Source: an uncultured Clostridia bacterium
GTDB taxonomy: Bacteria > Bacillota > Clostridia > TANB77 > CAG-508
NCBI GenBank assembly: GCA_944392675.1
Contig: CALXXK010000003.1
Span: forward strand, 1 to 35,339
Direction of reading: 5' to 3'
Length of the DNA stretch: 35,339 bases
Below the pieces are notes generated by a model. The model was not told where the DNA came from. It did not search any database and saw only the letters and a program-made list of their open reading frames with translations. Positions within the stretch are counted from its first letter, which is position 1. Every line of letters starts with the position of its first letter. The position numbers were made by a program, and so were the translations under genes. Below are positions 492-17,955 of the stretch, in pieces.

Positions 492-559
492 TCTAATTTA
501 TTCTATTTTTTTCGATTTTATTCTAATTTATTCTATTTTTTTCGATTTTATTCTAATTT
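492..559 (-). repeat. 30-bp tandem repeat, 2.3 copies
   Basis: TCTAATTTATTCTATTTTTTTCGATTTTAT at 492-521 and 522-551, partial third copy from 552 supplying the patatin stop codon. Confidence 0.9.
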
Positions 560-1410
560 TTCTGATTTAACTTTTTTAAATATTTTTTTGTTTCCTGATA
601 ACCTAATTCATATAATTCATCAATTTTGCTCATATCCAATAATCCTATTTTACCACTTCTAATTATAATATTATCCCCAGAACCATTTAACTCATAATTA
701 GAAAGTTCTCTACATAATAAATTTATGGATCTACTTGCAACTTCAATTATATTTTTATTATAACATTCGTCTTTTTCACTTTCAAAAATCACATTTATAA
801 CTTTATCAGCACCTAACATTTTTAACTCTTTCCACGGAACATTTTCTCTTATTCCACCATCTATTAATTGTGTGTTTTTATATTTAAATGGAGAAAAAAC
901 TACAGGATAACTACAGCTTGCTCTCACTGCTTTGCCTACTTCTATATCATTTATAAAAACTATATTATCTGAAAATTCTTTTCTAAATTCACAAGAAGTA
1001 AAACATTTTAATTCTCCATTGCACATATCAACAGTAGGAATAACTAATGGCATTTTAATATCTGAAATATTATATATATCTTTTTTATTACATTGCTTTT
1101 TTATTAATTTTTCTATCTGACTTCCATTATTTAATCCGTCTATAACTATTTTTCTTGTGAATATTAAACCGAATATCAATTTTATTATATTTATAAAATC
1201 AACATATTTTATTTTTTTACAATATTTTTTGAATATTTCATATATTTCGTCAGATGTGAAGCCACATGCATATAAAGATGCAACTATACTACCTGATGAT
1301 GTTCCTCCTATATAGTCTATTTTTATATTTTCTTCTTCTAATGCTTTTAACGCTCCTATATGTGCAGCACCTTTAACTCCTCCTCCTGCTAAGCACAACC
1401 CTAAACTCAT
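553..1410 (-). CDS. Patatin-like phospholipase
   Basis: GGGVKG oxyanion loop, GTSSG nucleophile motif, ASCSYP and DGG motifs; ATG at 1410 follows AGGTGA RBS (track start 1419). Confidence 0.92.
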   Translation of the reverse strand: MSLGLCLAGGGVKGAAHIGALKALEEENIKIDYIGGTSSGSIVASLYACGFTSDEIYEIFKKYCKKIKYVDFINIIKLIFGLIFTRKIVIDGLNNGSQIEKLIKKQCNKKDIYNISDIKMPLVIPTVDMCNGELKCFTSCEFRKEFSDNIVFINDIEVGKAVRASCSYPVVFSPFKYKNTQLIDGGIRENVPWKELKMLGADKVINVIFESEKDECYNKNIIEVASRSINLLCRELSNYELNGSGDNIIIRSGKIGLLDMSKIDELYELGYQETKKYLKKLNQKN

Positions 1411-1521
1411 AACAATCACCTATAATAATATATTCATAAAATAATTTATGTGTGCTCACAAATTTAGTTAAAATTCTATTGTACAAATTGCTACTTATTC
1501 TAAAAAATTTCATTTTATAAC

Positions 1522-1594: not shown

Positions 1595-2932
1595 TTAATC
1601 AAATTGAGATTTAGTAGGGAAATTAAATGACATCACAAAATCTGTTTCATCCTTTAATCTCATTATTATAGTCCTTTGTATTTCTCTAGTATCTTCTCCC
1701 GTCACATCTTTTAATGTTATTTTTTGAATATAGTTATCTTCTTCTTTTGTCGTTTCACCATATTCTATTGTATAATGTGCAGGAAAATACTGTCTCATAT
1801 ATTCTTCGAATTTTTCAATGCTACCAAAATTTTCGTTTCTAAATGTTTCATCTAATACATTATATGCTGCATTATAATCTCTATTATTTAGCATTTTAAT
1901 CCATTTATTGATATTATAAGCAACTTTATATTGATCGTCTGAACTTGCATACTCTGCTAAATATTCTTCATCTTCATAATCTAATGTATAATCATCTAAT
2001 AATACTGTATAGCCCATAATATAATTTTCTCTAAATATATAAATATTTTCATATTGATCTTTGCAAACATATTCATTATAATTTTCATAATTATTATATA
2101 GATATGATTGTACTTCTACTTTTGATAAATCATTTTTATTACTTTCTACATATTGCTTAAAACTATCAACACTACCAAATCTTTTATTTCTATAATCTTC
2201 GTCTAAAAGATCATAATATTTTTCTGGATTAGATAGTATTTTATTTTTCCAATCATTAAAATATATTACTGATACCCTTTGATTAGTAGTATTAGAAAAT
2301 TTAAATTTATTATATTCATTTTCTAATAAAGTAACTGTACCTATAGAATTCAGATCTTCTTTGCTTATATTTTCAGATATATTGTGTGTTTCTATATATT
2401 CTTCTGGAAACACTGAAAATAAAGTATTTCTTGTATCCATTTTTATAATTATTTCCATATCCTTTTCCAATAAAGAATATCTTCCTTTTATTAACAAAAT
2501 ATTTATATTATTATCAAATTCGGCAATATACATATCTTTTATTTCTACTGTTTCATTAATAGATATATTTTGATATTTATCATTTAAACTTGCTTCAGTT
2601 ATATTAAATTCACTTTTATAAGCATCATCTAATATATTATATATAGCCTCATTAGCAATATCTGTCAATCCTGCATCAATATCATTTAATGTCTTAATAT
2701 ATTCAAGATATCTATCAACTAACATTTGTGTAGTAAAGTATATATTTCTATCTTTAACTCTTTCTATCTTTTCTTTAGGTTCATATACATTTCTAGTCTC
2801 AAATTCTGTCACTTCACCACTATCAGTTTCTTTTTTGTTACTATTAAATATTATACATATTACAATAGTTATTAGTATTAATACAGAGATAATTATTATA
2901 GCTATTCTTAATTTTCTCAAATAATTCACCAC
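1595..2932 (-). CDS. Membrane-anchored protein with repeated possible NTF2-like (VirB8-like) domains
   Basis: Single N-terminal TM helix; internal repeats IYNILDDAYKSEF / YYDLLDEDYRNKRFGSVDSF / AYNVLDETFRNENFGSIEKF; fold assignment is inference. Confidence 0.55.
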   Translation of the reverse strand: MVNYLRKLRIAIIIISVLILITIVICIIFNSNKKETDSGEVTEFETRNVYEPKEKIERVKDRNIYFTTQMLVDRYLEYIKTLNDIDAGLTDIANEAIYNILDDAYKSEFNITEASLNDKYQNISINETVEIKDMYIAEFDNNINILLIKGRYSLLEKDMEIIIKMDTRNTLFSVFPEEYIETHNISENISKEDLNSIGTVTLLENEYNKFKFSNTTNQRVSVIYFNDWKNKILSNPEKYYDLLDEDYRNKRFGSVDSFKQYVESNKNDLSKVEVQSYLYNNYENYNEYVCKDQYENIYIFRENYIMGYTVLLDDYTLDYEDEEYLAEYASSDDQYKVAYNINKWIKMLNNRDYNAAYNVLDETFRNENFGSIEKFEEYMRQYFPAHYTIEYGETTKEEDNYIQKITLKDVTGEDTREIQRTIIMRLKDETDFVMSFNFPTKSQFD

Positions 2933-2935
2933 CTT

Positions 2936-5900
2936 TTATTGAGGTACCCTTAAAATGTGTGTAGCCGATGACTTACTATAGCCAGAAGTAGAACTTTCTG
3001 GTAATTCACTTGTACCTTCAGCATTTATAGAAGCATTTCCACCACAGTTATAAACTATAAATCTATCTCCAGATGGATTTGGATCAGCAATAATTTCAAC
3101 GTGTCCATTATATGTAACAATATCTCCAGGCTGTGCTTGATCAATAGATACTTCTTGCCATCCATATTGATTTCCTTCAAATGTCCATGATGTCCATTGA
3201 TACATTCCTTGTACAAAGTTTTCAACTCCTGCATTAACAAGAACCCATGTTACATAAGAACTACAGTCTATTGTTCTTCCACCTAAATTAGGTACTGTTA
3301 CTCCAGCTTGACCATAACTATAACCATTTGTCCTTATATATTGATGCAATTTTACAGCTTCTTGTACTATTGTTCCACCACCAAGTGATGCAAAATCTCC
3401 AAATATATCATTCCAATATTTTAGTTGTTGTTCATACAACCATGCCGTATAATCAGCTCTTTCTTGAATTGTATAATCATCTACACCTATTTTATGAACA
3501 CTACCACATTTAGCTTCAAATTCATCACCATAGATTTCTTTCAAATAGATATTTCCACCACTTCCCCAGTCTCCTTCTCTATGTTTAGTATCTTCTCCAC
3601 ATAGATCTGAATAAACACTAAGCATTCCTTTTAACGTTCCTGGTTTTCCATATCCATTAGAATTACAATTTGCGGCCGATCTTTCTTCATATCTTTGTAA
3701 TATTAATTGTTCTTGCCAAGTTCCACTGCCTTCCATGTAACTAGCAAATGTATCTGCTAATTCTTTAACACCTTCTTCAAATGAACTTATATATTTTAAA
3801 GATGCTCCATTTGGCGTTCCTAATCCCCAGAAATTCTGATTTCCTCCTGATGATTTAAATCCACTTTCTTTTAATGCCATTGTTACAATTAGCTCTGGAT
3901 TTACATTATATTTTACTCCTAAATCATATATCTCCTCTGCTCGAGATAAAAAGTTTTGTTTAAAAGCTAAATTTCCGGTTTTATCATAATATGCTTGTAG
4001 AGCCTTTACAAAAGTCTCTTTATCCATAACACTTTCTGTTAAAGATATATCTGTTGCACCATAACCTATTTGAGTAAATTCATTATTTTTAAATTTTTCA
4101 AAGATTTTATCTTTATCTACACCTTCAAATATTTCTTTTCCAAATAATTCATTTATTAAAAACTTTGTTAAATCGACCATTTCGGTACAATTTCTTTCTA
4201 TTATTTTAATTATCCATTTAGGTTTTAAATTTGCTTGTGTACCTGGATTATCTTTAAATAATTTAATAAAATCGTCCTCTTTACTTTGAATTGGTTTTGT
4301 TTCTCCAGTATCAAATTTATTTGAAATTGTAGTTGTCGTTGTTGTTATTACTGTTGTAAAAACATTAGTCTTTCCATCTTGTGTTACTGATGTAGTTCTA
4401 ACATCTTGTTGAACAGTTTTTGTATTAGTAACTTTTCCTTTTACATTAGCAGTCGCATTAGCAATTAGTCCTAATTTTGAATTACCATTTTTTATTGCTG
4501 CATCTCCCTTTTCTTCAACGTCTTCTGCTAAAAATACTTCTCTACCATCAGACGTCACTCCAAAAGTCTCATCATGATTTTCCACATAAATATCTATATG
4601 ATTTCCATTTACTCCTCCTCCAACATCTTCTGCAACAAATACACAATCAAAACCATCTATTATAACTTTTGTACCTAGTGGAATAACATTTCTATCTACT
4701 GCTATTGTTCTATTAGGTGTTGCGACTGCTCCAGATGCAGTTTGTGTTCCATATCCTTCTGAACATTCATAACATGGACAATATCCTGTTGTTCTAAAAA
4801 CTCCTAAAGATTGTCCTTTCTTTCCAGATAATCCTCCGCCGCTAGCTTGTATATTAAGAGATGTATAACTTACTTCTTTTTCAAATCTAACAAACCAAGT
4901 ATCTGCATATGTTAGCTCTATAGTATCACTAACAGTTTCTCTTAATTCTAAACTTGAAGTCACACCTTGACCATTATATGTTACACTTCTTTCTACTTGA
5001 GTTGTGGTAACATTATCTTGAATAGCAATAATAAATTCGCTATCATATACCATATCTATAAAATCATTTATAAACTCCACATCTTTTACATCTATTAAAA
5101 AATCTAATAAATATTCATATTTAGTAACATATTTTTTCATAACTGTTTTAAAGTTTATTGGTGAATTTTTTAAAATTTTTAATCCTTCTGCTGTTGAATA
5201 AGACCACTTAGCAGTAATTAAATTTCCACTTTCATCTAAAGTATATACATCTAAAGCCTTTTGATCATTATTATCAACATAATAATTAAAAGTTTCTTTA
5301 TCTACATATGATAAATCTTGAGTTTCCTTTTCTTCATTTTCATCATCATCTTTTGTATCTTCTGAACTTTCTGGATCCTCAGGATGTCCCATATATTCAT
5401 CTACACCTTCAGCAATAGCTTTACCAATTTCATCAGATTTTGAATTTAGTATAGCCAAATCTGAACTATTATCATAAAATCCTATTTCTAGATATGCAGT
5501 AGGACAAGTATTTTTATGAAAAGCTATTAAATCTGGTTGTCCTGTTATAGCACCATTATTTTTTAATCCTGTACTTTCCGCTATTTTATTATTAATAATA
5601 GAACCTGCTGAATTGCTTTTTTGTGCATAGTCAGTTGGTATATATTTTTGAGTATAACGATTTTCATCTCCTAATTGCATATAACTTGTACCACTTGCAC
5701 CTGCTCCAGAGGCATTAGAATGTATACACACATATAAATCTGCATCTGGCTCTTTAGTTATATCTTGATTTGGAAAACAATATTCTGATCTTAAAGAAAA
5801 TGATTTATGTGAATTTCCATCCTCTCTAGTCATTCTAACTGTATATCCCATATCTTCCAAATATTTCTTTGCAGCAAGTGCATTTTTTAAGTTAATTTCC

Positions 5901-8179
5901 GGTTCTGTATCTCTATCACCACTTGTGGCTGAATACCATTCACTTACCCCCTGTGCAGCCCCTGAACATCCAGAACCTTCACATTCTTGTCCATATGTTC
6001 CTGATTTCCAATGTCTCCATTCTCCCCATTCACCAGAAGAATTTTGAACAAATCCATTTTTAGCTCTATCTTCAGCTGACATAGCTGATATTGAAGTTCC
6101 ATGACCTGGATCTAAAACTATTATTCCTTTACCTCCTCCAGAAGAATAACTTCCTGAACTTTCTCCTTCTGGAACATACTTCAAATCTTTTATCTTAGCA
6201 TTAATTGCAGATGAGGTTTTAGTCGTTGACGTAAATGAATTTTCTGTACCTGTTGTAGTAGAAGATGAGCCTTCTCCACTTGCTGTTTCAATATTTTCAT
6301 AAACTATTGAAGATAATTCCTCAAAAATTTTTGCATTGTCATCAGTAGTAGAAATAGCTAAAACATATGTTGCATTTTCTTTATATACTATAGTAATTTC
6401 AGTCTTAGCCCCTCCTCTTTCTTCTATCATTGACACGTTATTTACTCCGTTAGGTAATCCCATTGCAATCTGTGATGATCTTTCTGTCTTCATAAGTAAA
6501 TTTAAAGTTGTTAATCCTTCTGTATTATTTTCCCAAGTATGATATGTATTATTTTGCAACTCTCCAACCAACCTTACTAAATCAGAAAGTGAACTATAAT
6601 TTTCTTCAATATTTTCAGTAATTACTGTTGATGTATAACCTCTTTCTTTAATCCTCTTATTTAATTCATCAACTCCAATTACCTCTATAATTTTATTAAT
6701 TCTTCTATCACTAATATATCTATTTATTTCTGCTGATTTATCAGAATCTTTATTTTCATATTTGTATTGCTGTGCTTCTGCAATTACAAATAAATCTGTT
6801 AAATTTCCTGCGTTAATTTGTTTATCATTTAAATTTACTCCTATTTTACCTGTTGATAAATTTTTAGCATAAATACTCCAAGCTCCACCTTGAGCATTTT
6901 TATTCACATAGTCTGATACCTCTTCACTTATCTTACCTCCAGAGTTATCTGTACTAACAGAGCTTTCTTCTTCTCTACTAGAGGCTATTTCTTCTGACTC
7001 TTGTTCATTTTTTCCTACATTTGTCCAATCTATAGTAGCAACATTATCCAAACTCTGTTTTTCAAAATGTTGTGTATCACCTGTTAAATCATCTGCACTT
7101 CCAAGCCATACCCAACCATATTTGGTAAAAATATTATATATTTCTGAATCTGAGGTTATTGCTGCTGCCTTTTCTGTTTCTGTCCATCCAGTTTTATTTT
7201 TTCTATCTTTGGCAAATTTATTTGCATTTGAATGTGAATTTGAACCATCTGGATAAATATATGGATTTATCATAGGATTTATATCTATAGCTTGTCCAAG
7301 TCCATGATATGAAGCAGTTCCAGTATCTGTATTTCTATCATTGAAAGCTGATGTATTATTATCTTCTATTGAACAATAATCCAATCTATTTCCATATTCT
7401 GTACTAGAATTCATTTTTTGAGCTTCATCATCATACTCATCAATCAAAACCATTTTTTGTATAGGATACTTAATTTGATACAGTTCTTGAAAAATAAGTA
7501 ACACTTCATCTGCTATTTTTTTACTAACAACCATTTCACCTGTTTGCACATTTCCATCAAAATCATAATATGGTATTTTTAAGTAAGATAAATCATCATA
7601 AGTTATTCCTGTTAGCCCTTTCATTGATTTACCTTCCATTCTTTTTTGTAACTCTTCATCTATATCCTGTTTAGTACCTAATCCATCTGAACTAACTTCA
7701 CTAGTTGTACTAATAACACCAGCTGATGTATCTTTTAACTCTCCTATACTTTTATTTGGTGAGACCCTTCTGATTTTTATTCTTCCTTGAAATCCATCTA
7801 TACTTTCTTCTGTTGATTCTTCTTCTTCCTCTCCACTAATTGCATTTTGTATTTCTTCTTTCTTATTTTTTATATCTTTGTCATTAACTCCTTGATCTTC
7901 TAGATACTTAATATCATCTAATAAATCTTGTAATTCTTCTTTATTACTATCTTCCGAAATTTCTGCATTATAAATATTAGTTTTTATCTTTTCAATATTC
8001 CTCATTGTTGTTCCGTCATCATCATCATTTATTGGAATTATTTCATTTTCATCATCTATGTGTCTTATATCCTTTACACTTCTTGTATTTACTTCTCTAC
8101 TAGTTACTTTCCAATTCGTTTTAGAATTTCTTCCTGTCAATTTTTCTTCAGACCAACCGAGTCTGATATTTATCATCAT
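2936..8179 (-). CDS. Multi-domain peptidoglycan hydrolase (M15 peptidase, degenerate class A beta-lactamase-like, Amidase_3, 3D, glucosaminidase/lysozyme-like, NlpC/P60); probably the C-terminal part of a ~2005-aa protein starting at 8954
   Basis: SYHGLGQAIDINPMINPY..DTQHFE; IVLDPGHG..CIHSNA..YLEIGF; TGYCPC..TASG..IAVDRNVIPLGTKV..AEDVGG..HIDIY; YNVNPELIVTMALKESG..NFWGL; IDCSSYVTWVL..PGDIVTYNGHVEI. No well-spaced RBS at 8179. Confidence 0.85.
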   Translation of the reverse strand: MMINIRLGWSEEKLTGRNSKTNWKVTSREVNTRSVKDIRHIDDENEIIPINDDDDGTTMRNIEKIKTNIYNAEISEDSNKEELQDLLDDIKYLEDQGVNDKDIKNKKEEIQNAISGEEEEESTEESIDGFQGRIKIRRVSPNKSIGELKDTSAGVISTTSEVSSDGLGTKQDIDEELQKRMEGKSMKGLTGITYDDLSYLKIPYYDFDGNVQTGEMVVSKKIADEVLLIFQELYQIKYPIQKMVLIDEYDDEAQKMNSSTEYGNRLDYCSIEDNNTSAFNDRNTDTGTASYHGLGQAIDINPMINPYIYPDGSNSHSNANKFAKDRKNKTGWTETEKAAAITSDSEIYNIFTKYGWVWLGSADDLTGDTQHFEKQSLDNVATIDWTNVGKNEQESEEIASSREEESSVSTDNSGGKISEEVSDYVNKNAQGGAWSIYAKNLSTGKIGVNLNDKQINAGNLTDLFVIAEAQQYKYENKDSDKSAEINRYISDRRINKIIEVIGVDELNKRIKERGYTSTVITENIEENYSSLSDLVRLVGELQNNTYHTWENNTEGLTTLNLLMKTERSSQIAMGLPNGVNNVSMIEERGGAKTEITIVYKENATYVLAISTTDDNAKIFEELSSIVYENIETASGEGSSSTTTGTENSFTSTTKTSSAINAKIKDLKYVPEGESSGSYSSGGGKGIIVLDPGHGTSISAMSAEDRAKNGFVQNSSGEWGEWRHWKSGTYGQECEGSGCSGAAQGVSEWYSATSGDRDTEPEINLKNALAAKKYLEDMGYTVRMTREDGNSHKSFSLRSEYCFPNQDITKEPDADLYVCIHSNASGAGASGTSYMQLGDENRYTQKYIPTDYAQKSNSAGSIINNKIAESTGLKNNGAITGQPDLIAFHKNTCPTAYLEIGFYDNSSDLAILNSKSDEIGKAIAEGVDEYMGHPEDPESSEDTKDDDENEEKETQDLSYVDKETFNYYVDNNDQKALDVYTLDESGNLITAKWSYSTAEGLKILKNSPINFKTVMKKYVTKYEYLLDFLIDVKDVEFINDFIDMVYDSEFIIAIQDNVTTTQVERSVTYNGQGVTSSLELRETVSDTIELTYADTWFVRFEKEVSYTSLNIQASGGGLSGKKGQSLGVFRTTGYCPCYECSEGYGTQTASGAVATPNRTIAVDRNVIPLGTKVIIDGFDCVFVAEDVGGGVNGNHIDIYVENHDETFGVTSDGREVFLAEDVEEKGDAAIKNGNSKLGLIANATANVKGKVTNTKTVQQDVRTTSVTQDGKTNVFTTVITTTTTTISNKFDTGETKPIQSKEDDFIKLFKDNPGTQANLKPKWIIKIIERNCTEMVDLTKFLINELFGKEIFEGVDKDKIFEKFKNNEFTQIGYGATDISLTESVMDKETFVKALQAYYDKTGNLAFKQNFLSRAEEIYDLGVKYNVNPELIVTMALKESGFKSSGGNQNFWGLGTPNGASLKYISSFEEGVKELADTFASYMEGSGTWQEQLILQRYEERSAANCNSNGYGKPGTLKGMLSVYSDLCGEDTKHREGDWGSGGNIYLKEIYGDEFEAKCGSVHKIGVDDYTIQERADYTAWLYEQQLKYWNDIFGDFASLGGGTIVQEAVKLHQYIRTNGYSYGQAGVTVPNLGGRTIDCSSYVTWVLVNAGVENFVQGMYQWTSWTFEGNQYGWQEVSIDQAQPGDIVTYNGHVEIIADPNPSGDRFIVYNCGGNASINAEGTSELPESSTSGYSKSSATHILRVPQ

Positions 8180-8954
8180 TATATGTTGGAACTTTTATTT
8201 TCTCTCCTTGATAAAAGTCTATATCACTCTTATTAATCCAACCTTGTAAATTTAAAAGAGACCATTCTACATCTACTTTTACCTTTACTCTGTCACCTTC
8301 TGCTTCTACAACTTCATATATCTGTTTCTTTGTTTTTTGCTCTTTCTTCATAATAGTTGATTTTAAAATTTCATCACCAGTAGAATTTACATATATATTC
8401 TTATTTTCAATTGGCTGTATATATTTTATATCATCCCAATTTTCTATCAATTCTGCCTTTATGGTATCCCCTTCTATGTCTTCATCATCCCCTGATGTAA
8501 AATCTCCTCCTAAATTAGGATACTGAGTAACTAGTTGAGCCCTTATCATTTTCTCAATTGTATCTTCTGTCATTCCTTTTAAATTGTGTTCATCTATTAC
8601 TTTTTTTGTGAGTTCACTTAATTTTTCCTCAAATCCATCTACATAACCTAAATAATATCCATCTTCTGAATTACCTTTTATTTCTACCAATTCTTCTAAA
8701 TTATCTACCTCTAATGTTTCTAATGTTGCCTCTGGTGTTTTATCAGCTTGAATAAGTTCAACTATCCAACTAATTCCTGTATATATAAGAACTATTGCAG
8801 AAAAAATCGTAAGAAATGTTGCCATTAGTTTTACTCCAGTTACAGAAATAATAGCCATTATTGTCCCTTTTACTTTTCCTTTAACTTTTGCAGTTTTTCT
8901 GGATGTATCTTTTTCATAATTTTCTAACTTTTTTTCATCAAAATCATCATTCAA
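8148..8954 (-). CDS. Membrane-anchored N-terminal part of the giant hydrolase (TM segment, possible SH3-like tail)
   Basis: TTG start after GAGGTGA; hydrophobic segment aa ~32-66; YEVVEAEGDRVKV..GWINKSDI resembles bacterial SH3; overlaps the next ORF, which is in the +1 frame. Confidence 0.7.
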   Translation of the reverse strand: MNDDFDEKKLENYEKDTSRKTAKVKGKVKGTIMAIISVTGVKLMATFLTIFSAIVLIYTGISWIVELIQADKTPEATLETLEVDNLEELVEIKGNSEDGYYLGYVDGFEEKLSELTKKVIDEHNLKGMTEDTIEKMIRAQLVTQYPNLGGDFTSGDDEDIEGDTIKAELIENWDDIKYIQPIENKNIYVNSTGDEILKSTIMKKEQKTKKQIYEVVEAEGDRVKVKVDVEWSLLNLQGWINKSDIDFYQGEKIKVPTYNDDKYQTRLV

Positions 8955-8980
8955 GCTTTCATCACCTCATTTCTTATTAA

Positions 8981-9922
8981 TTATAATTCTACTTCTATTT
9001 TTACATAATACTGTACATCATTATTATTTAAATATTTTTCATAATCTGTAACAATACTTGAAAAAGTTAATTTTTTATTTGGCAATCCTTCTGTATAAAT
9101 ACTACTAAATTTAATACTTAAATTTTTACTTTCTTTTGATTTTACACATAAATCTTCATCAGAATATTCATGAATAAATGCTTCAAATTCTGTACTATTC
9201 TCATTTGATATATATGTACTATCCGTATCTTTTCTATCGTCTAACAAAATATCTTTATCTGTATTATTTTCTACAGATATATTATAAATAGAATAATCCA
9301 TAAATATATCTGCCGAATCTACTGTAACTTTAATATTTTCTTGCTCTGCACTATTATTATAATTAACTCTTCCGACATATCCATTTATACCTAACTTATA
9401 AGTATTTTCTTCTTTTATTATACTATAATAATCTTCAATATAAGTTTTATTTGCTATACCAGTTGATAACATATCTTCATAAAATTTTATTCTATAAATA
9501 TAGGCGTTTTTAGTTGTCCAAGATTGAAAAGAATAATCCCATTTTTCATTTTTAAATTTTCCTTTGCAATAATTTTCTTCAAATATTTCTTTAGTTGGAT
9601 ATAATAATCTTTTACAATCTGAAGAAAGTAACTTGTATGCCTCATCTACGTTATTTTCTTTACAATAAGTTAAAAAACTATCTATCAAATTACCAAAATC
9701 AGAACTATATTCTTCTGGAACTTCATCTCCTGAAACTAAAGATATACTTTCATCTTCATATTTTTCAGTTGAAATATCATTTTGAGCTGTATTTTGACTA
9801 TTATCTGTCTGTTTTGCATTATTATTCAACACTTGAATAATAGCTAAAATAAAAATTATTACTGCAATTCCAATCCAGACCTTAAATCTATTTTGATTAT
9901 ATAATCTTATAATTTTATTCAA
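8981..9922 (-). CDS. Membrane-anchored protein, possible NTF2/VirB8-like domain plus C-terminal beta-rich domain
   Basis: TTG start after GGAGG; N-terminal TM; LIDSFLTYCKENNVDEAYKLLSSDC resembles the repeats in 1595-2932. Confidence 0.55.
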   Translation of the reverse strand: MNKIIRLYNQNRFKVWIGIAVIIFILAIIQVLNNNAKQTDNSQNTAQNDISTEKYEDESISLVSGDEVPEEYSSDFGNLIDSFLTYCKENNVDEAYKLLSSDCKRLLYPTKEIFEENYCKGKFKNEKWDYSFQSWTTKNAYIYRIKFYEDMLSTGIANKTYIEDYYSIIKEENTYKLGINGYVGRVNYNNSAEQENIKVTVDSADIFMDYSIYNISVENNTDKDILLDDRKDTDSTYISNENSTEFEAFIHEYSDEDLCVKSKESKNLSIKFSSIYTEGLPNKKLTFSSIVTDYEKYLNNNDVQYYVKIEVEL

Positions 9923-9931
9923 TTTTTCCTC

Positions 9932-12541
9932 CTATACTTTTCTTATCTTTATTATATCATCCATTACTTCATTAACTTTTTTATCACTAATCTTTCCTTT
10001 GTTTCTTTTCATCAAGTTTTCTCTAAATGCTACTTTTGCTTCTTCATTAGTAGCAAAATCCTTTGGTAATTTACTTGCTAATTCAGCCCTAGCTACTTTT
10101 GAACGTTCATCTTTAAGGTTCAATTGTGAAGCCTTATATATAGTATTTATATCCGTAACTCCCGCATCCAAATAAGGTTGAACACTGTTATCTAAGAATT
10201 CTTTTGCTTGCTCAGAATTCATTCCTTTTTTCATTAAGTATTCATAATTTTTTTCGCTACTTTTGAATTCAGCATCAAATTGTGCTTGTTTCTTTTTCTT
10301 TATTTCTTCAGGAGAATGCATTGCATGTTGCGTAATAGTTTTAATATTATTAGCTTCATTTGATATTGTATTTCCCATTCTATTAGCTGCTCTTGAACCA
10401 AGACCTGCGCCCACTCCTGCTCCTGTTGCTAAACCACCTGCAAATACTGCTGCTCCTTTTTCTAGATCTCCTGTTGTTAATGCTGCTGCTCCAGCTACAG
10501 TTCCTGTTACTGCTGCTCCTACAGCTGCTCCACCTAATGATACTGCTGCCTTAGGTACTTTTTTAGCTACTTTCCAAACTTTTTGACCTACATTCTCTGG
10601 ACTCATAGCTCTACCAATTCTTCTTTTATAATGGCTTCCTACCTCTCTAACTGCATTCATAACTTTAGAAGGTCTTCTTTCCCTACTTTTACCTTCATTT
10701 TCTTCTATGCTTTCTTCTGAAATTTCTTCTGTATTATTTCTATTCTCTAAACTTTTCCTAAATTTATCAGAAGCTACTTTTACTGTATTTTGCTGTTGTT
10801 CATTATTACTTAAATTACTCTGATCATTTGGGTTGTTTAAATTGTTTGGATTATTTAAACCATCTATATTATTATCATTATATTCTCTAGTATTTGGCTC
10901 TATTGAACTTGTATCCTCTCCTTCATTTGAATTCCCCTCTGTATCTTCTCCATTAGATGTTGGAAGAGCTCCTCTTTCTTGATTTTCTTCTTCTCCTAAA
11001 ACATCTTCTGCACTTGTATGTCCTTCATTTGCTCCTCTATTATACCTATCAATTGCTTTTGTTGTACCTCTATCACCTGAGTCATCATTTCCGTCTTTGC
11101 TTCCTCCTTTTGCTTTTCCCTTAAATAATCCAGCTACTGCTCCAACTCCCTTCATCGCTAGAGCTCCTCCAGCTACTGCTCCTAAACCTGCTGCTGTTTC
11201 TGATTTATCTAGACCAAACATCTTCTTAATAAATTTCTCTGCTGGTAATAGGAAACCAATTGCAACTAATGCATAAATAGGATTATCAGCTGCCAATCCA
11301 ATTGCTGATGTCACTAATACTGTATATAACACTAAATGAATTGGTTGTATAATAAGGTTCATAGTATATTCTTTAAACCATAAATTAAATGCCTGTGCTT
11401 TTCCATCTCCTGCTTTATCTACAGGGTATGTTAAAGCCGATAATGGTGCTATCATTGTAAAAAATGCCATATACATTAACCTTTTAAAATATGTAAAGGT
11501 AAACATTACAGTATATATAACTAATGCTAAATAAATTATTGTATATGCTGCCGCATCTTGAAATTCACTACTTTGAGCCATAAATCTTACATATCCTGTC
11601 AAATTAGTTCTAAATGCTCCATTATTTCCTTCACCTATTTCTAATGATTTTGCACCGTTTTCTTTACCATTGTCCGTAACTAAAACTACAATGTCATTTC
11701 CATCTCCACCTGCAAATAAATTAGTCACTCTTTCTGTTAACATCAATAAACCTGCCATTATAAAATGTATTGCAAAAACTAAAACCATGGCAACTAACCA
11801 ATCCTTCATTGTTTCTTTGTATTTTGCTTTATTTTCTGCAGTTGAACTTAATAAAATTCTTATTCCTAAGAAAATCAAAACTGACAATAAACCAACAATA
11901 GCAATATTTCTAAAAGATTTATACCAAGCAGCTATAGTTGGTCCTAATGTAAAGGCTGTAGATACTGCCGCATCTTCACTACTTTCAACACTACTTCCAA
12001 CACTATTTCCATCACTATTTCCATCACTATTAGTAGTTGTAGCATTAAATTCTACTGAAGTATATGTATGTGGATTTATGAAGTTTACATCTAAAGCTGC
12101 TATTCTATTAGAAAATATACTTTCTGGTGAATACATTATATTAGGAATTCTCCAATCGGAAAATAGCAATCCATCCATTTCTCCACCATTTACTACCATT
12201 AAAGTTCCTTTACTTTTTGCCTCACTTACATCACTATTAGTAGCATATAGAGAAGATCTTGTTTCTTCTGAGTTATTTGCTCCATTCTCTTTAAAATTTG
12301 CATTAGTTGTAGGCAGCATTGTTGAACTTATACTCGATACACCAACCATCATTTTATTCAATGCTCCCATAAATACATCCCCTAAAGCTGCTAGCAAATG
12401 TACAAATTCTTTTAATAAATCTCCTCCTATATCCCATCCATCTGCTTGAACTCTCACAGGAACAATAAAGTTAAAAAGTATTACTACTACTATTGCTATT
12501 ATTATCTTTTGCGTAAAACCTTTACTCTTAAAAAAATTCAT
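9932..12541 (-). CDS. VirB6/TrbL-like polytopic membrane protein with long C-terminal extension
   Basis: Signal peptide, several TM helices, YFKRLMYMAFFTMIAPLSALTYPVD..FNLWFKEY..IIQPIH motif typical of Gram-positive VirB6-like proteins; follows VirB4. Confidence 0.75.
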   Translation of the reverse strand: MNFFKSKGFTQKIIIAIVVVILFNFIVPVRVQADGWDIGGDLLKEFVHLLAALGDVFMGALNKMMVGVSSISSTMLPTTNANFKENGANNSEETRSSLYATNSDVSEAKSKGTLMVVNGGEMDGLLFSDWRIPNIMYSPESIFSNRIAALDVNFINPHTYTSVEFNATTTNSDGNSDGNSVGSSVESSEDAAVSTAFTLGPTIAAWYKSFRNIAIVGLLSVLIFLGIRILLSSTAENKAKYKETMKDWLVAMVLVFAIHFIMAGLLMLTERVTNLFAGGDGNDIVVLVTDNGKENGAKSLEIGEGNNGAFRTNLTGYVRFMAQSSEFQDAAAYTIIYLALVIYTVMFTFTYFKRLMYMAFFTMIAPLSALTYPVDKAGDGKAQAFNLWFKEYTMNLIIQPIHLVLYTVLVTSAIGLAADNPIYALVAIGFLLPAEKFIKKMFGLDKSETAAGLGAVAGGALAMKGVGAVAGLFKGKAKGGSKDGNDDSGDRGTTKAIDRYNRGANEGHTSAEDVLGEEENQERGALPTSNGEDTEGNSNEGEDTSSIEPNTREYNDNNIDGLNNPNNLNNPNDQSNLSNNEQQQNTVKVASDKFRKSLENRNNTEEISEESIEENEGKSRERRPSKVMNAVREVGSHYKRRIGRAMSPENVGQKVWKVAKKVPKAAVSLGGAAVGAAVTGTVAGAAALTTGDLEKGAAVFAGGLATGAGVGAGLGSRAANRMGNTISNEANNIKTITQHAMHSPEEIKKKKQAQFDAEFKSSEKNYEYLMKKGMNSEQAKEFLDNSVQPYLDAGVTDINTIYKASQLNLKDERSKVARAELASKLPKDFATNEEAKVAFRENLMKRNKGKISDKKVNEVMDDIIKIRKV

Positions 12542-12553
12542 TTTTCTCCTCCT

Positions 12554-14527
12554 CTATTTTCCTGCTCTTATTTCTCTCATCTTTCGCATTTTAACTAATT
12601 TATTAATATTTGTTTCTACAAATTCAAATTCTTTTGCTGTAGGTACAATTTGTAAAATTGCTGTATCTGAACCAACTTTTAATAATCCCTCACCTTTTAA
12701 GCAAGTTATTAAGAAATTTGCTTCTCCTTCACTTAATTTAAAAACAGTTTTTAAATATTCTATTTCAGATTTATCTTGTGCTAAAAATAATTTTGTATCA
12801 GATGATGTTAAAACTGCTTGTGCTTCTGGTTTTTCATAAAAGTCTTGAAATCTTTGAGAAATAATAGCCAAAGAAACATTTCTCTTTCTAGCACGTCTAG
12901 CCATTTTATTTAAAAAGTCTACTGCTTCTGGATATGGCAAAAGCATCCATGCTTCATCAACTAACACTCTTTTTTGTTTTGCTTTATTTCTATCTTCACT
13001 ATTCTTTTTTACATATTTTTCCCAAATCCATGAAAGCAAAATTTGTTGTGCCAATGGTCTAGCAAATCTTTCTTCTAATTGTGATATATCCAAATTAATA
13101 AATGGTGAATCTTCTAATAATTCAAATGTTGATTGACCATCAAAATATGCCATCTGTCCATTAAATTCTCTTATATATTGTTTCATTACTTTTAATAAAT
13201 AACTATAATGAAATTGATAATCCACATTATTATTATCTTGTGCCTTCTTTTGTAATCTTTTATACCAACTTCCTATTGTTGGCATATCCTTCTTTTGTTT
13301 ATATAATTTATCACCTTTTTGTAATTCGTCACCTTTTCTATATAAACTATTAGGATTATTAGTAATTCCCAAACTTGCATATTCCTCTGCAACTGTTTCT
13401 GCTATAACTTGCTTTGTTAATTCATTTACTTCGTCGCTCCTTGTACTACCTCTTGCCATTGTTAATAATGCTTGCGTAACATCCTCAACCTTATTTTCTA
13501 TATTTAAACTTACTCTCTCTCTTCCTGTTATAGGATCTTTAACTACTTCTGGTTCAACATCAAATAAATTAATTACAGTATTAGAATTTGGGCTTAATAC
13601 TACATTAATTCCTCCCAAACTTTCTGCCACAATTGAATACTCACCTTCTGCATCTAGAGCTAAACTTTCTATTCCCATTAATACAGATGATCTTGAAATT
13701 AAGGTTTTCATAGTTACGGATTTACCAGCTCCAGATTTAGCAAATATTACCATGTTATAATTAGTTAAAGATGAATGAAAATTATCAAATAATATAGGTG
13801 TTCCTGTTTGTTTATTAAATCCTAACGGTACTCCAGTAGGATGTCCTATTTCAGATGTTGTAAAAGGAAATACTGTTCCCATAGATCTTCTATCAAATGA
13901 ATGTATTTTCCTTATTTGGTCATTCATTAATGGTAAATTTGATTTAAAAGCTTCTTCTTGGATGGCCCAAGCATTTTTAATTTCCACTAATGATTTTGAC
14001 ATTTCAGTTGCTAATAATTTTGTTAACCTATCTAAATCTTGCATATTATATGCAAATAAAGTAGCTATCACAGATGCTTCATACATTTTATTAAAACCGG
14101 CTGCAATTTCATCTCTTAATTGCTCAGCTTCAAATCTCTTTTGAGCTAATGTACTTTCTCTATTTATATTTCCTCTATCAGATGCTACTATTCTCTCAGT
14201 TTCCAATTCATTAATAACTTTATTTAATTCATTCTGAGACCTAGATTCAGCTATAGGAGTTATGTATATAGAAGTATTAATATCACCAAAAAAGTATAAA
14301 TCTCTAAACAATTCTGGAAAAGTACACATACGTGGTAATCCAGATATAAAGAAACTTCTTGCATATCTAGTAACACTTGATATTATCTCTAAATGATCTA
14401 CTTTTGAAGCATCAATACCTGATGGAGCAATCAATTCTTTGATAGTTTTTGCTCTTAATGCTCCTGTCTCTACTTGTTCATTATAACTAGCTTTTTCTAC
14501 TTTTTGTTTCTTTTTTCTTCCCAACAT
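12554..14527 (-). CDS. virB4: VirB4-like type IV secretion ATPase
   Basis: NYNMVIFAKSGAGKS (Walker A), LDAEGEY, VLVDEAW (Walker B), RRARKR, ISQ and GEGLL motifs. Confidence 0.9.
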   Translation of the reverse strand: MLGRKKKQKVEKASYNEQVETGALRAKTIKELIAPSGIDASKVDHLEIISSVTRYARSFFISGLPRMCTFPELFRDLYFFGDINTSIYITPIAESRSQNELNKVINELETERIVASDRGNINRESTLAQKRFEAEQLRDEIAAGFNKMYEASVIATLFAYNMQDLDRLTKLLATEMSKSLVEIKNAWAIQEEAFKSNLPLMNDQIRKIHSFDRRSMGTVFPFTTSEIGHPTGVPLGFNKQTGTPILFDNFHSSLTNYNMVIFAKSGAGKSVTMKTLISRSSVLMGIESLALDAEGEYSIVAESLGGINVVLSPNSNTVINLFDVEPEVVKDPITGRERVSLNIENKVEDVTQALLTMARGSTRSDEVNELTKQVIAETVAEEYASLGITNNPNSLYRKGDELQKGDKLYKQKKDMPTIGSWYKRLQKKAQDNNNVDYQFHYSYLLKVMKQYIREFNGQMAYFDGQSTFELLEDSPFINLDISQLEERFARPLAQQILLSWIWEKYVKKNSEDRNKAKQKRVLVDEAWMLLPYPEAVDFLNKMARRARKRNVSLAIISQRFQDFYEKPEAQAVLTSSDTKLFLAQDKSEIEYLKTVFKLSEGEANFLITCLKGEGLLKVGSDTAILQIVPTAKEFEFVETNINKLVKMRKMREIRAGK

Positions 14528-15700: not shown

Positions 15701-16066
15701 TTAGTTTTCCTCCTTTTTATCTGATTTATCGAAATTATTTATTTTATTCACATATATTCTTTTCTTCTTCAATTTGAATTTTATAGCTCTCCTTATAACA
15801 TCATCTATATCTTCTCCTCCGGTATTCTTGGTAAATTCAAATGAATTAGTTCGTGGTATTTTAAACGTACCTATTATAAAACCTATTAAACCTAATACTG
15901 CAACAATTATTATACCAACAATATCCATTTCTAATAAACTAAATATTAAATAAAAAATTAATCCTATTCCAGCACCAATAGCTGTATATACCATTGCCTT
16001 TTTTGAAAATATAAATAATATTTTTCCTTCACCTTTTACATTTCTAGGTAAATCATATGTTCCCAT
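15701..16066 (-). CDS. PrgI-family (VirB3-like) membrane protein
   Basis: MGTYDLPRNVKGEGKILFIFS followed by two TM helices; ATG at 16066 follows GGAGG (track start 16090). Confidence 0.75.
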   Translation of the reverse strand: MGTYDLPRNVKGEGKILFIFSKKAMVYTAIGAGIGLIFYLIFSLLEMDIVGIIIVAVLGLIGFIIGTFKIPRTNSFEFTKNTGGEDIDDVIRRAIKFKLKKKRIYVNKINNFDKSDKKEEN

Positions 16067-16108
16067 TAAAACCCTCCTACTTTTTCTCATAAATATACTA
16101 TTATATTA

Positions 16109-16252: not shown

Positions 16253-16615
16253 CTAGCTTCCGCTTATTCCCGTAAAGAATTGGTATATTACTTGTGCAAA
16301 TACAGATGCTGCAAATATTAAAGCTGCACCAACTATATATGGTATCATACTTTTCTTATATTCTGACTTTTCTTCTGCACTACCCATCATATATTTTATA
16401 CCTATAATAATTAATATAACAACTGATAATACAATTCCTGCAGTTTGTAGTATACCAACTAAGCTTTGTCCTAAACTTGTTATTTCAGCTGTTCCTGTAA
16501 CATCTCCTGATGATGTAACTTCTGATGGTTCAAGAGCAAAAACATTTAAACTTATTGATATAAAAACTGTCATAATTAATAAAATATTAATTATATTTAA
16601 TACCTTCTTGCTCAT
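16253..16615 (-). CDS. TrbC/VirB2-like pilin
   Basis: Signal peptide ending VFA; two hydrophobic helices around GIKYMMGSAEEKSEYKK. Confidence 0.85.
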   Translation of the reverse strand: MSKKVLNIINILLIMTVFISISLNVFALEPSEVTSSGDVTGTAEITSLGQSLVGILQTAGIVLSVVILIIIGIKYMMGSAEEKSEYKKSMIPYIVGAALIFAASVFAQVIYQFFTGISGS

Positions 16616-16770: not shown

Positions 16771-17223
16771 TTAATCATTAAAATTTTGCATAAATTGATA
16801 TATCAAATTTGGAATAGTAGTTCCCGTAAATAGAAAAAATGCTCCTATTATATATGGATACATTGTTTTCTTATAATCAGCCTTTTCCTCTACACTACCC
16901 ATCATATACTTTAGACCAATAAAAGCCAAAATAACAACAGAAGCCACAATTCCTACTACGTTAACTATTTGTAATACTTTACCTGCAATATCCATTAATC
17001 TTTCTGCATCATTTGTATTAGGATCTTTCTTATAATTATCTAAATCCCCTAAATCAAATTGGTTTCCACCACTACTTCTAGCAATTGCAATAGATTCACT
17101 ATTGAATCCTTCAAGTGTTTCATTCGACGCATGTGAACACAATATATTAATATTAAAATATATAAACAAAATCATCAATACTATTAATACTTTTTTTACT
17201 ATATTCAAATTTCTCACCTTCAA
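16771..17223 (-). CDS. TrbC/VirB2-like pilin
   Basis: Signal peptide; GLKYMMGSVEEKADYKKTMYPYIIGA motif; real start may be TTG at 17208 after AAGGTGA. Confidence 0.85.
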   Translation of the reverse strand: MKVRNLNIVKKVLIVLMILFIYFNINILCSHASNETLEGFNSESIAIARSSGGNQFDLGDLDNYKKDPNTNDAERLMDIAGKVLQIVNVVGIVASVVILAFIGLKYMMGSVEEKADYKKTMYPYIIGAFFLFTGTTIPNLIYQFMQNFND

Positions 17224-17268
17224 TCTGTATTATATAATCTTTTCTTTTACTTTATATCTATTTTATTT

Positions 17269-17955
17269 TTAAATTGAATTTAATATTGTCACAACTAATT
17301 TCCATATTCCAAATGCTCCAAATACAATAACACATCCTACTATATAAGGCATTATAAATTCTTTTATTTCTGCTTTTTCTTCAACACTTGAGGTTAACAT
17401 TTTTAATCCTAAAACACTTCCCATAACAACTGCCACTACAATTGCTATTGTCAATAATATACTGTACATAGTCTCTGATAAATCTTGTATCTTATCCTGA
17501 TCTATAGTATATATTTCTAAAGTATCTTCATTATTTATGTATTCATCTGCACTATCAAAAATTTCATCAATTGTCCCTACACTTGTTCTATTTGCATCAT
17601 CTAATTGGGGTTGTCTATATAATTTATAGTTTTCATTACGCCCTTCCTTTATATCCATCAACTTACTCTTTAATTCATCAATCATCTCATCATCAACCCC
17701 TTCAGGTGGAGATTGTGTGCCACGAACACTCGATATTACGTCAAGCCATTCCGTTGCCGTTTCTGCATTTTTACAGTTATCTTCTATATATTTATCGCCT
17801 TCATCTCTAAATCCTTTTAATATTTCACTATATTTCTGAATCTTCTGAGCATTGTTAAGTGCTGCAAAACATTTTACTTGCATGATACTACACATAAAAA
17901 ATACAAAACATAGAAATAATATAACAACTCTAAATAATTTATTATTCCTAATCAT
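17269..17955 (-). CDS. TrbC/VirB2-like pilin with extended N-terminal domain
   Basis: Signal peptide, ~130-aa soluble region, then GLKMLTSSVEEKAEIKEFIMPYIVGCVIVFGAFGIWKLV. Confidence 0.8.
   Translation of the reverse strand: MIRNNKLFRVVILFLCFVFFMCSIMQVKCFAALNNAQKIQKYSEILKGFRDEGDKYIEDNCKNAETATEWLDVISSVRGTQSPPEGVDDEMIDELKSKLMDIKEGRNENYKLYRQPQLDDANRTSVGTIDEIFDSADEYINNEDTLEIYTIDQDKIQDLSETMYSILLTIAIVVAVVMGSVLGLKMLTSSVEEKAEIKEFIMPYIVGCVIVFGAFGIWKLVVTILNSI

Follow-up and report, generated by a model that had tools for sequence, protein, structure and literature searches.

A multi-cassette peptidoglycan hydrolase, probably of an origin-proximal type IV secretion system, in uncultured gut Clostridia

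The hydrolase considered here is encoded on the minus strand of a contig from an uncultured Clostridia bacterium of the TANB77 clade (CALXXK010000003.1, assembly GCA_944392675.1), between positions 2936 and 8954. The window analysed is the whole of this contig, 35,339 nucleotides long, and belongs to a 1.41-Mb metagenome-assembled genome that is 89.7% complete. The hydrolase carries six peptidoglycan-related modules. It probably serves to open the wall for a type IV secretion system (T4SS) of the Gram-positive kind that is fixed beside oriC, as the functional counterpart of VirB1, PrgK, TraG and CwlT. It appears to be a mosaic, with species-specific and interchangeable cassettes set into a conserved scaffold, a conclusion well supported by comparison with its relatives. 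In this species the anchor and the enzymes are encoded apart, divided by a +1 frame break that is fixed.

CwlT and TcpG, like PrgK of pCF10, TraG of pIP501 and Orf14 of Tn916, are VirB1-like hydrolases of Gram-positive conjugative T4SSs. The known Gram-positive VirB1 homologues are described, in the passages of PMC12857230 that deal with them, as all membrane-anchored and as harboring at least one extracellular enzyme domain. According to the same passages, TraG has two domains and PrgK three, of which the muramidase alone is an active degrader, the LytM and CHAP domains being reported as non-catalytic. Set against this account, the window protein has more peptidoglycan-related modules than PrgK or TraG; a first-pass annotation, made from the sequence alone, had contrasted it with the three catalytic domains of PrgK and the two or so of CwlT and TcpG.

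Enzyme modules of the hydrolase

The region is made up of two open reading frames (ORFs) in different frames. ORF 1 (P0002, 8148-8954, minus strand) encodes 268 amino acids (aa) from a TTG start and is the anchor piece, and ORF 2 (P0001, 2936-8179, minus strand) encodes 1747 aa, includes all of the catalytic modules and has no signal peptide or transmembrane segment. The modules of ORF 2 were assigned with Pfam, whose gathering cut-offs are given here in bits, and all of them lie where the first-pass annotation had put them, separated by the Ser/Thr/Gly-rich and acidic linkers that it had described.

The first module is a VanY-like zinc peptidase, Peptidase_M15_4 (PF13539; aa 285-374, 7058-7327, minus strand), with an E value of 1.1e-11 and 45.6 bits against a cut-off of 25. 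It contains HGLGQAID and GDTQHF, and the H-x6-D and later His, which we take to be the M15 zinc-ligand motif, are conserved among homologues. The N-acetylmuramoyl-L-alanine amidase, Amidase_3 (PF01520; aa 687-927, 5399-6121, minus strand), harbors an insert of about 60 aa and scores well above its cut-off (E 7.9e-21, 75.3 bits versus 27). It aligns with CwlD (7rag_B), matches a PHROG endolysin, and contains DPGHG, TEPE, CIHSNAS and LEIGF, presumably the amidase (metal) motifs. The 3D domain (PF06725, a YuiC/MltA-like lytic transglycosylase; aa 1157-1204, 4568-4711, minus strand) matches at E 1.7e-12 and 47.8 bits versus 23.8, and its three Asp residues, in AVD, EDVGG and IDIY, align with those of YuiC (4wli).

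The two remaining enzymes lie closer to their thresholds. The glucosaminidase (3680-3961, minus strand) is of glycoside hydrolase family 73 (GH73) type and was recognised with a profile of our own, although it falls below the Pfam threshold (PF01832 on the fragment: E 0.0027, 18.8 bits versus 30.2). The profile, built from 16 sequences over aa 1385-1600, matches solved GH73 enzymes at E values from 2e-7 to 4e-6, including LytB (4q2w, 1.9e-7) and Listeria Auto (3fi7, 2.2e-6), as well as the phage hydrolase 8yxk, and all 16 aligned sequences keep the catalytic Glu of ALKESGF. The C-terminal NlpC/P60-CHAP cysteine peptidase (aa 1630-1721, 3017-3292, minus strand) scores 22.3 bits versus 23 for NLPC_P60 on the whole protein (E 1.4e-4) and passes the cut-off on the fragment alone, with 26.8 bits for both NLPC_P60 (E 5.3e-6) and CHAP (E 7.3e-6). 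Its Cys (in IDCSSYV) and His (in NGHVEI) align with those of CwlO (8wt3). On these grounds, five modules look active: M15, Amidase_3, 3D, GH73 and NlpC/P60. Between them, the M15 and NlpC/P60 peptidases would cut the stem peptide, Amidase_3 the bond between N-acetylmuramic acid and L-Ala, and the 3D domain and GH73 the glycan.

The sixth module, between the M15 peptidase and the amidase, had been called beta-lactamase-like, and this holds for its fold and probably not for its chemistry. It is a degenerate class-A beta-lactamase or PBP-A-like module (6260-6907, minus strand), matched by Beta-lactamase2 over aa 495-611 at E 1.5e-7 and 31.4 bits versus 22, in which all three class-A motifs are lost. 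The window protein reads A-G-N-L-T-D where the family reads S-A-S-L-I-K, has S-D-R-R with a gap, and lacks KTG; among nine aligned homologues, S-x-x-K is found in eight and SDN/SEN and KTG in all nine. Since the window copy lacks the Ser and Lys of SxxK, SDN and KTG, it should not acylate, and it is very probably inactive as a serine peptidase; at most, it may bind the wall. PBP-A, a class-A beta-lactamase-like penicillin-binding protein, has DD-peptidase activity. For the intact version of the cassette, in congener G018, the nearest solved relative is the PBP-A Tll2115 of Thermosynechococcus (2j7v, E 2.7e-16), from which the window copy differs by the loss of these same residues.

A conserved scaffold with exchangeable cassettes

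BLAST of P0001 with 14 syntenic proteins reveals three scaffold pieces in common, namely an N-terminal domain with its associated motif, core A (aa ~950-1106) and core B (aa ~1240-1400), and the variable cassettes are located between and after them. The N-terminal scaffold domain occupies aa 70-157 of ORF 1 (8484-8747, minus strand) and is conserved in the family consensus and in nine congener proteins (BLASTP, E 6e-19 to 7e-4). It follows a hydrophobic membrane anchor at aa ~30-69 (8748-8867, minus strand), itself preceded by a Lys-rich stretch, which in a Kyte-Doolittle scan is the only hydrophobic segment of the two ORFs, with none in ORF 2. The transmembrane anchor of the first-pass annotation is present, but on the upstream 268-aa ORF. 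ORF 1 aa 32-157 align with the N-termini of homologues made as a single ORF (P0004, P0009, P0019, P0107 and several congeners), in which the ORF 1-like part is followed by GFQGxIxIRR. The motif adjoins the N-terminal domain directly in these homologues, and in the window it lies in ORF 2 (GFQGRIKIRR, 7766-7795, minus strand).

The remainder of ORF 1, aa 160-268 (8151-8477, minus strand), had been reported as SH3-like and is possibly an SH3b-like region. No SH3 match was found in Pfam even at E values up to 10. In the ESM Atlas it has SH3b-type neighbours with feature scores of 0.90-0.92; the structure rows with SH3 clusters reach TM-scores of 0.49-0.51, and a YkuD row up to 0.64, for a low-confidence model with a mean pLDDT (predicted local distance difference test) of 0.58. 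Neither PHROGs nor NCBIfam gave a match for ORF 1.

Core A (aa 954-1106, 4862-5320, minus strand) is the signature of the family, with tblastn matches in 80 of 96 loci. Its AlphaFold2 model is of good quality (pLDDT 82.3) and found no fold match in the PDB with Foldseek (best E 0.33), no match in BFVD (best E 0.034), and in VIA-align, over 48,161 chains, a best Z of 3.0 to SH2-like rows, which is taken as chance. Core B (aa 1240-1400, 3980-4462, minus strand) is defined by homologue alignments and by a near-invariant DLTKYL, and is modelled poorly (pLDDT 53.2 for aa 1225-1400 with 28 sequences). PHROGs contains no match for either core.

The recurring junction around the amidase that had been noticed in the first-pass annotation is real at the protein level. 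Copy 1, KDLKYVPE (aa 664-671, 6167-6190, minus strand), comes after the beta-lactamase-like module, and copy 2, QDLSYVDK (aa 954-961), comes after the amidase and opens core A, which in the family consensus begins with DLKYVPxExF. The motif is single, preceding core A, both in P0004, which has no beta-lactamase module, and in P0009, in which the beta-lactamase module is followed by the amidase. The double copy in the window can be read as the scar of a recombination between two such arrangements, and as the DNA of the two copies is identical at just 19 of 54 bases, the recombination would not be recent.

The content of the slot that follows VirB6 and a ~320-aa ORF was surveyed by Pfam in 43 ORFs from 32 congeners, in a first batch of 12 and a second of 20. 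The families found are Amidase_3, Phage_lysozyme2, Phage_lysozyme, Lysozyme_like, Glucosaminidase, Hydrolase_2 and Glyco_hydro_3, together with NLPC_P60, CHAP, Peptidase_C39_2/C70, M23, M15_4, Beta-lactamase2, a GDSL lipase and an alpha/beta hydrolase. Counting also the 3D domain found in the window protein, there are at least 15 kinds of cassette, whose number and order vary between species, from one to about seven per conserved scaffold, in slot ORFs of 685-1882 aa. Identity is correspondingly patchy along the protein: P0001 is 63% identical to its G021 relative over aa 1595-1747 and 26% over aa 846-1105, and 60% identical to that of G013 over aa 130-384 and 30% over aa 800-1713. Core A itself is 26-57% identical over 55 relatives, versus 72-87% for VirB4 within the genus. 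The syntenic orthologues of the 32 congeners and the family alignment thus bear out the earlier idea of cassettes inserted in a scaffold.

The many-module architecture, presented in that annotation as unusual, turns out to be usual within its family, which comprises at least 337 protein clusters. With P0001 as query, a search of 5.8 billion proteins returned 134 at E<=1e-10, and among the matches listed 45 of 120 have at least four precomputed Pfam families, up to seven, some of whose models overlap. The core A profile returned the 337 clusters at E<=1e-5, with wall-hydrolase families in 118 of the 120 listed; no source names any of the clusters, and no description of the family was found by keyword in the open-access literature. 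Species-representative genomes contribute 63 loci, from the guts of chicken, rabbit, human, goat and mouse, and in 62 of 63 the record title gives Clostridia or a subgroup, while among 72,556 plasmids 19 records match, each through one domain covering no more than 15% of the query. As far as searched, the family appears to be confined to uncultured gut Clostridia. Elsewhere in the order, four sampled genomes of three other families have the locus with a large protein bearing a single M23 domain, and the two genomes sampled from a fourth (f5; L120, L124) show no recognisable hydrolase domain over 18 kb and have, downstream of VirB4, several very large proteins of 804-1871 aa with weak T4SS_pilin matches. 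On this sample of six genomes from four other families, the multi-cassette expansion appears to be particular to the one bacterial family.

A fixed frame break between anchor and enzymes

The first-pass annotation took positions 2936-8954 to be one frame of about 2000 aa. This is not so: the 268-aa and 1747-aa ORFs overlap by 32 nucleotides (8148-8179, minus strand), and a +1 shift is required to join them. The frame of ORF 1 ends with CGG TTG GTC TGA, the stop being at 8150-8148, and the frame of ORF 2 is closed upstream by a TAA at 8197-8195, so that a single +1 shift somewhere within 8151-8194 would yield one protein of ~2006 aa. Reading the TGA as a sense codon was also considered as a means of joining the frames and is ruled out by a TAA ten codons further on.

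The break is not an assembly error, as it is identical in the contigs of four independent studies. The stretch 7700-8700 is present in 20 public runs from 13 studies, from chicken gut wherever they are labelled, and in contigs from all four of the runs compared, one from each of four studies, positions 8142-8200 are covered with no gaps relative to the window. One of these contigs, X13 (2161 nucleotides), spans the whole stretch and has seven single-nucleotide polymorphisms (SNPs) relative to the window. Four of them produce exactly K36N, R39K, E124G and L148V, the substitutions that distinguish P0003, a database protein of 1749 aa that is 95% identical to P0001 and starts at the same Met-Met; the other three, which include both SNPs in ORF 1, are synonymous. 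Since X13 carries the P0003 substitutions without a gap, the break is common to a second lineage. P0001 and P0003 differ by 82 substitutions and two gap columns over 1747 aa and both frames are open, whereas in 2000 neutral simulations of 82 amino acid changes each the frame stayed free of stops in only 0.6%. This argues that ORF 2 has been under selection since the break, and, being kept open, that it is probably still made, perhaps through +1 frameshifting from time to time or through coupled re-initiation within the 32-nucleotide overlap.

Two congeners have orthologues that are also split into overlapping ORFs, at sites that differ from that of the window: G015, with ORFs of 522 and 427 aa (L024:7417-8982 and 8945-10225), and G072, with ORFs of 399 and 907 aa (L050:6410-7606 and 7581-10301). 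The stop-to-stop coordinates imply a +1 shift in both. The arrangement typical of VirB1-like proteins, with the anchor and the enzymes on one polypeptide, is absent from the window and present in the single-ORF homologues.

The secretion system beside the origin and the role of the hydrolase

The hydrolase is encoded within a T4SS cluster, in line with the conjugative VirB1-like hydrolases with which the first-pass annotation had compared it. In the window, which takes in the replication origin region, dnaA, dnaN, recF and gyrB lie on one strand, and on the other are rnpA, yidD, yidC, jag, mnmE, mnmG, rsmG, parA, parB and a DUF4446 gene. These are followed by a 78-aa ORF without a family, three pilins, PrgI, a 403-aa ORF, VirB4 and a VirB6-like protein, and then by a 313-aa ORF, the hydrolase, a 445-aa ORF and a patatin-like phospholipase. 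VirB6, VirB4, PrgI and the three pilins are thus directly upstream of the hydrolase on the same strand. The three pilin genes are TrbC/VirB2-like by Pfam (16253-16615, 16771-17223 and 17269-17955, minus strand), as VirB4 is an ATPase of its family (12554-14527, minus strand), and the PrgI/VirB3-like protein (15701-16090, minus strand) scores 26.7 bits versus a cut-off of 27. The VirB6-like channel protein of 869 aa (9932-12541, minus strand) is identified by NCBIfam matches to MMCAP2_0566, Mbov_0396 and pLS20_p028, all below their cut-offs, and by a weak T4SS_pilin match. The 313-aa ORF (8981-9922, minus strand) precedes the hydrolase in all syntenic loci and has no family found, and the conserved 445-aa ORF that follows the hydrolase (1595-2932, minus strand) has a weak DUF4864 match; PHROGs and NCBIfam contain no match for either.

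The order of a ~420-aa ORF, VirB4, VirB6-like, a ~320-aa ORF, the hydrolase and a ~440-aa ORF is kept in 26 of the 32 congeners, that is, in 12 of 12 from the first batch, which was picked from matches to P0001 and hence has a slot protein by choice, and in 14 of 20 from the second. Of 60 other genomes in the genus, 58 have a VirB4 orthologue, with 72-87% identity or as a fragment where a contig ends, and so do all 32 high-quality genomes of the genus, G000 counted among them. In the order as a whole the count is 77 of 80 other genomes, with identities of 61-87%, across five families and all 20 genera sampled. These counts argue for a vertically inherited core machine and not a sporadic mobile element. 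The genomes of the order are small, from 0.9 to 2.4 Mb.

An integrative and conjugative element (ICE), the setting that the first-pass annotation had in view, does not fit the locus, which is origin-proximal and conserved across the order. No relaxase, coupling protein or integrase was detected by Pfam among the 26 ORFs of the window. In G024, whose cluster likewise follows parB-DUF4446, a scan of the ORFs in bases 1-53,000 of a 100-kb contig gave none of the three; the scan did not extend to a genome-wide relaxase search. A complete VirD4-type coupling protein (T4SS-DNA_transf, TraG-D_C, TrwB) does occur as a solitary gene, 40-60 kb from the T4SS, in G003, G014 and G066 (L119:6856-8904, on G003:C1; G014:C2:129679-130911; G066:C3:118994-120244), and a VirD4-type gene is found in the window's own genome at C4:26539-27933. 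That of G003 lies among housekeeping genes for YpeB, a Mur ligase, DnaJ and a peptide-chain release factor, with no relaxase alongside.

Some further features of these chromosomes may be recorded here. These chromosomes have another VirB4-like ATPase (TraG P-loop/AAA_10), with ~30% identity to the first, ~25 kb off on the other side of the origin, between gyrB and gyrA in G024 (L118:7775-9394) and beside four ORFs without Pfam matches. It is also found in many congeners, and in the present genome would fall beyond the end of the contig. The patatin-like phospholipase of the window (553-1419) lies just beyond the T4SS cluster and could be an effector or unrelated; G024 has two copies (L018:13313-14275 and 16833-17783), interleaved with RCC1-repeat proteins. 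Positions 53000-72999 of contig C41 of G024 (L031) contain only 12 ORFs in a scan of at least 90 aa, all on the minus strand and the longest about 220 aa, which is unusual for a compact genome.

The system may operate as follows. The T4SS, most likely a domesticated one, would have its permanent place in the chromosome next to oriC and pass by vertical descent through an order of gut Clostridia with small genomes. The hydrolase is probably held at the secretion channel by its anchor and by the N-terminal domain with GFQGxIxIRR, core A and core B, and interchangeable peptidoglycan-cutting cassettes would occupy the positions between and after these pieces. Cassettes may be exchanged by recombination at the conserved junctions, with the amidase, flanked by two core-A start motifs, as an instance. 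The first-pass annotation had envisaged the breach of diverse foreign walls; the wall attacked may be that of a partner, that of the cell itself or both, and the sequence cannot tell these apart.

In several respects, the family fits the functional class of Gram-positive VirB1 proteins. Like PrgK, TraG and Orf14, the hydrolase is encoded within its T4SS cluster, and the family shows an N-terminal anchor followed by extracellular glycosidase and CHAP/NlpC-type peptidase domains. A domain without catalytic activity would also have its parallel in the LytM and CHAP domains of PrgK, as these are presented in the relevant passages of PMC12857230. However, the family appears far more modular, with six modules in the window protein and up to seven Pfam families in relatives (some overlapping) compared with one to three in the known proteins. 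It adds amidase, M15 and 3D domains, and in its relatives M23, GH3, GDSL, SleB-type and PBP-A-like domains, and its scaffold, core A and core B, is peculiar to it and matches no known fold. The system differs further in being chromosomal, origin-proximal and order-wide and not on an ICE or plasmid, and in having anchor and enzymes in separate frames in the window.

A second point of comparison is provided by the Patescibacteria. Their T4SS is described, in the sections concerned of a survey (Quinonero-Coronel et al. 2025, PMC12102498) and of PMC10633639, as chromosomal and dnaA-proximal, with a pilin array and no relaxase in the cluster, and is thought to be non-conjugative. In Southlakia epibionticum, hydrolases beside virB4 are reported as essential for epibiotic growth in the corresponding part of Wang et al. 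2023 (PMC10633639). The window cluster resembles the system as given in those sections in lying near dnaA, in its array of VirB2-like pilins, in the lack of a relaxase found in the cluster and in having a wall hydrolase within it. It differs in belonging to another phylum, 62 of 63 loci having Clostridia titles, and in the place of the hydrolase, which comes after VirB6 and a ~320-aa ORF and not directly after VirB4. The Clostridia also have a VirD4-type coupling protein elsewhere in the genome, whereas none is recognised in Southlakia in the part of the source concerned. For the TANB77 clade, which is uncultured, the pili discussed in the sections of PMC11680825 consulted are of the Tad/Flp type, and not this T4SS.

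Several observations weigh against the hydrolase as a T4SS wall-opening subunit. The frame break parts every enzyme module from the sole membrane anchor, and a signal peptide is absent from ORF 2; by eye, ORF 2 has no Shine-Dalgarno sequence at the usual distance, an AAGGAG ending 24 nucleotides upstream of the ATG, and no familiar slippery motif was seen in 8151-8194, so that the enzymes have no evident way out of the cell. No RNA is recorded among the 20 runs containing the stretch, all of which are DNA or of unlisted kind. The docking role of the scaffold is one that we infer, core A matching no known fold, and among all PDB chains (phmmer, E<=0.1) P0001 retrieves only CwlD, YuiC and CwlO and no solved T4SS hydrolase. 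Finally, the slot is arranged differently in 6 of 20 second-batch congener loci.

Three other explanations have been considered, of which a contact-dependent weapon or host-attack factor is doubtful but the least so. The T4SS would here display or deliver the hydrolase, possibly with the patatin-like phospholipase, against the walls of other bacteria, and cassette turnover would mirror an arms race or differing target walls. The hydrolase would then be more than, or other than, a help in assembly. This would agree with a repertoire that varies strongly between species beside a conserved motor, with the phospholipase adjoining the cluster both here and in G024, with the small genomes of the order, and with the lack of any relaxase or integrase found near the T4SS, as in the patescibacterial system of the cited sections (PMC12102498, PMC10633639). 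Yet the anchor and conserved scaffold of the family resemble tethered VirB1-like subunits, no secretion signal or immunity gene was recognised, and the full VirD4-type coupling protein that is retained leaves room for DNA transfer.

It is improbable, in our estimation, that the gene is instead a decaying pseudogene in this species, killed by the frameshift, with the beta-lactamase-like module already degenerate and the rest of the frame open only for the time being. The break in four of four runs compared, the loss of SxxK, SDN and KTG, the want of a good ribosome-binding site for ORF 2, the recurrence of splits in G015 and G072, and the absence of a second copy found in the 89.7%-complete genome would all be in keeping with decay. 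They have to be set against two break-sharing lineages, 82 substitutions and two gap columns apart, that both remain open, as only 0.6% of neutral simulations do, against catalytic residues that are intact in five modules, and against the synonymous nature of both SNPs in ORF 1. As for a prophage or phage-tail lysin, a tail-associated or tape-measure-like hydrolase and not part of the T4SS, the endolysin and 3D-type phage families matched in PHROGs, and the Phage_lysozyme2 ('phage tail lysozyme') domains of congeners, point in that direction. It is nevertheless very hard to sustain, given that Pfam, over the 26 window ORFs scanned, detects neither phage structural genes nor a terminase or integrase, that synteny with VirB4 and VirB6 is constant, and that the core A model is without a match in BFVD (best E 0.034).

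With the hydrolase as a wall-opening subunit, the T4SS wall hydrolases, hitherto one- to three-domain proteins of plasmids and ICEs, would gain a large and as yet unnamed family. Its scaffold, of no known fold, accepts cassettes for nearly every peptidoglycan bond, within a T4SS that appears core to an abundant order of uncultured gut bacteria. The family offers a natural experiment in domain shuffling, complete with conserved junctions, a probable recombination scar and a module that is very probably dead, and the fixed frame break with its maintained downstream ORF represents a testable case of recoding or of a two-piece enzyme. The system also points to a non-conjugative use of T4SSs outside the Patescibacteria. 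A more far-reaching idea, to which we give little credence at present, is that this order-wide, relaxase-less, pilus-bearing origin T4SS, a core possession as in the epibiotic Patescibacteria, is aimed at other bacteria and not at conjugation, with the hydrolase as its wall-breaching head and the cassettes reshuffled from species to species so as to fit, or keep ahead of, the walls of different partners or prey. If true, cell-attached or predatory life with a domesticated T4SS would have a second, independent lineage in these Clostridia.

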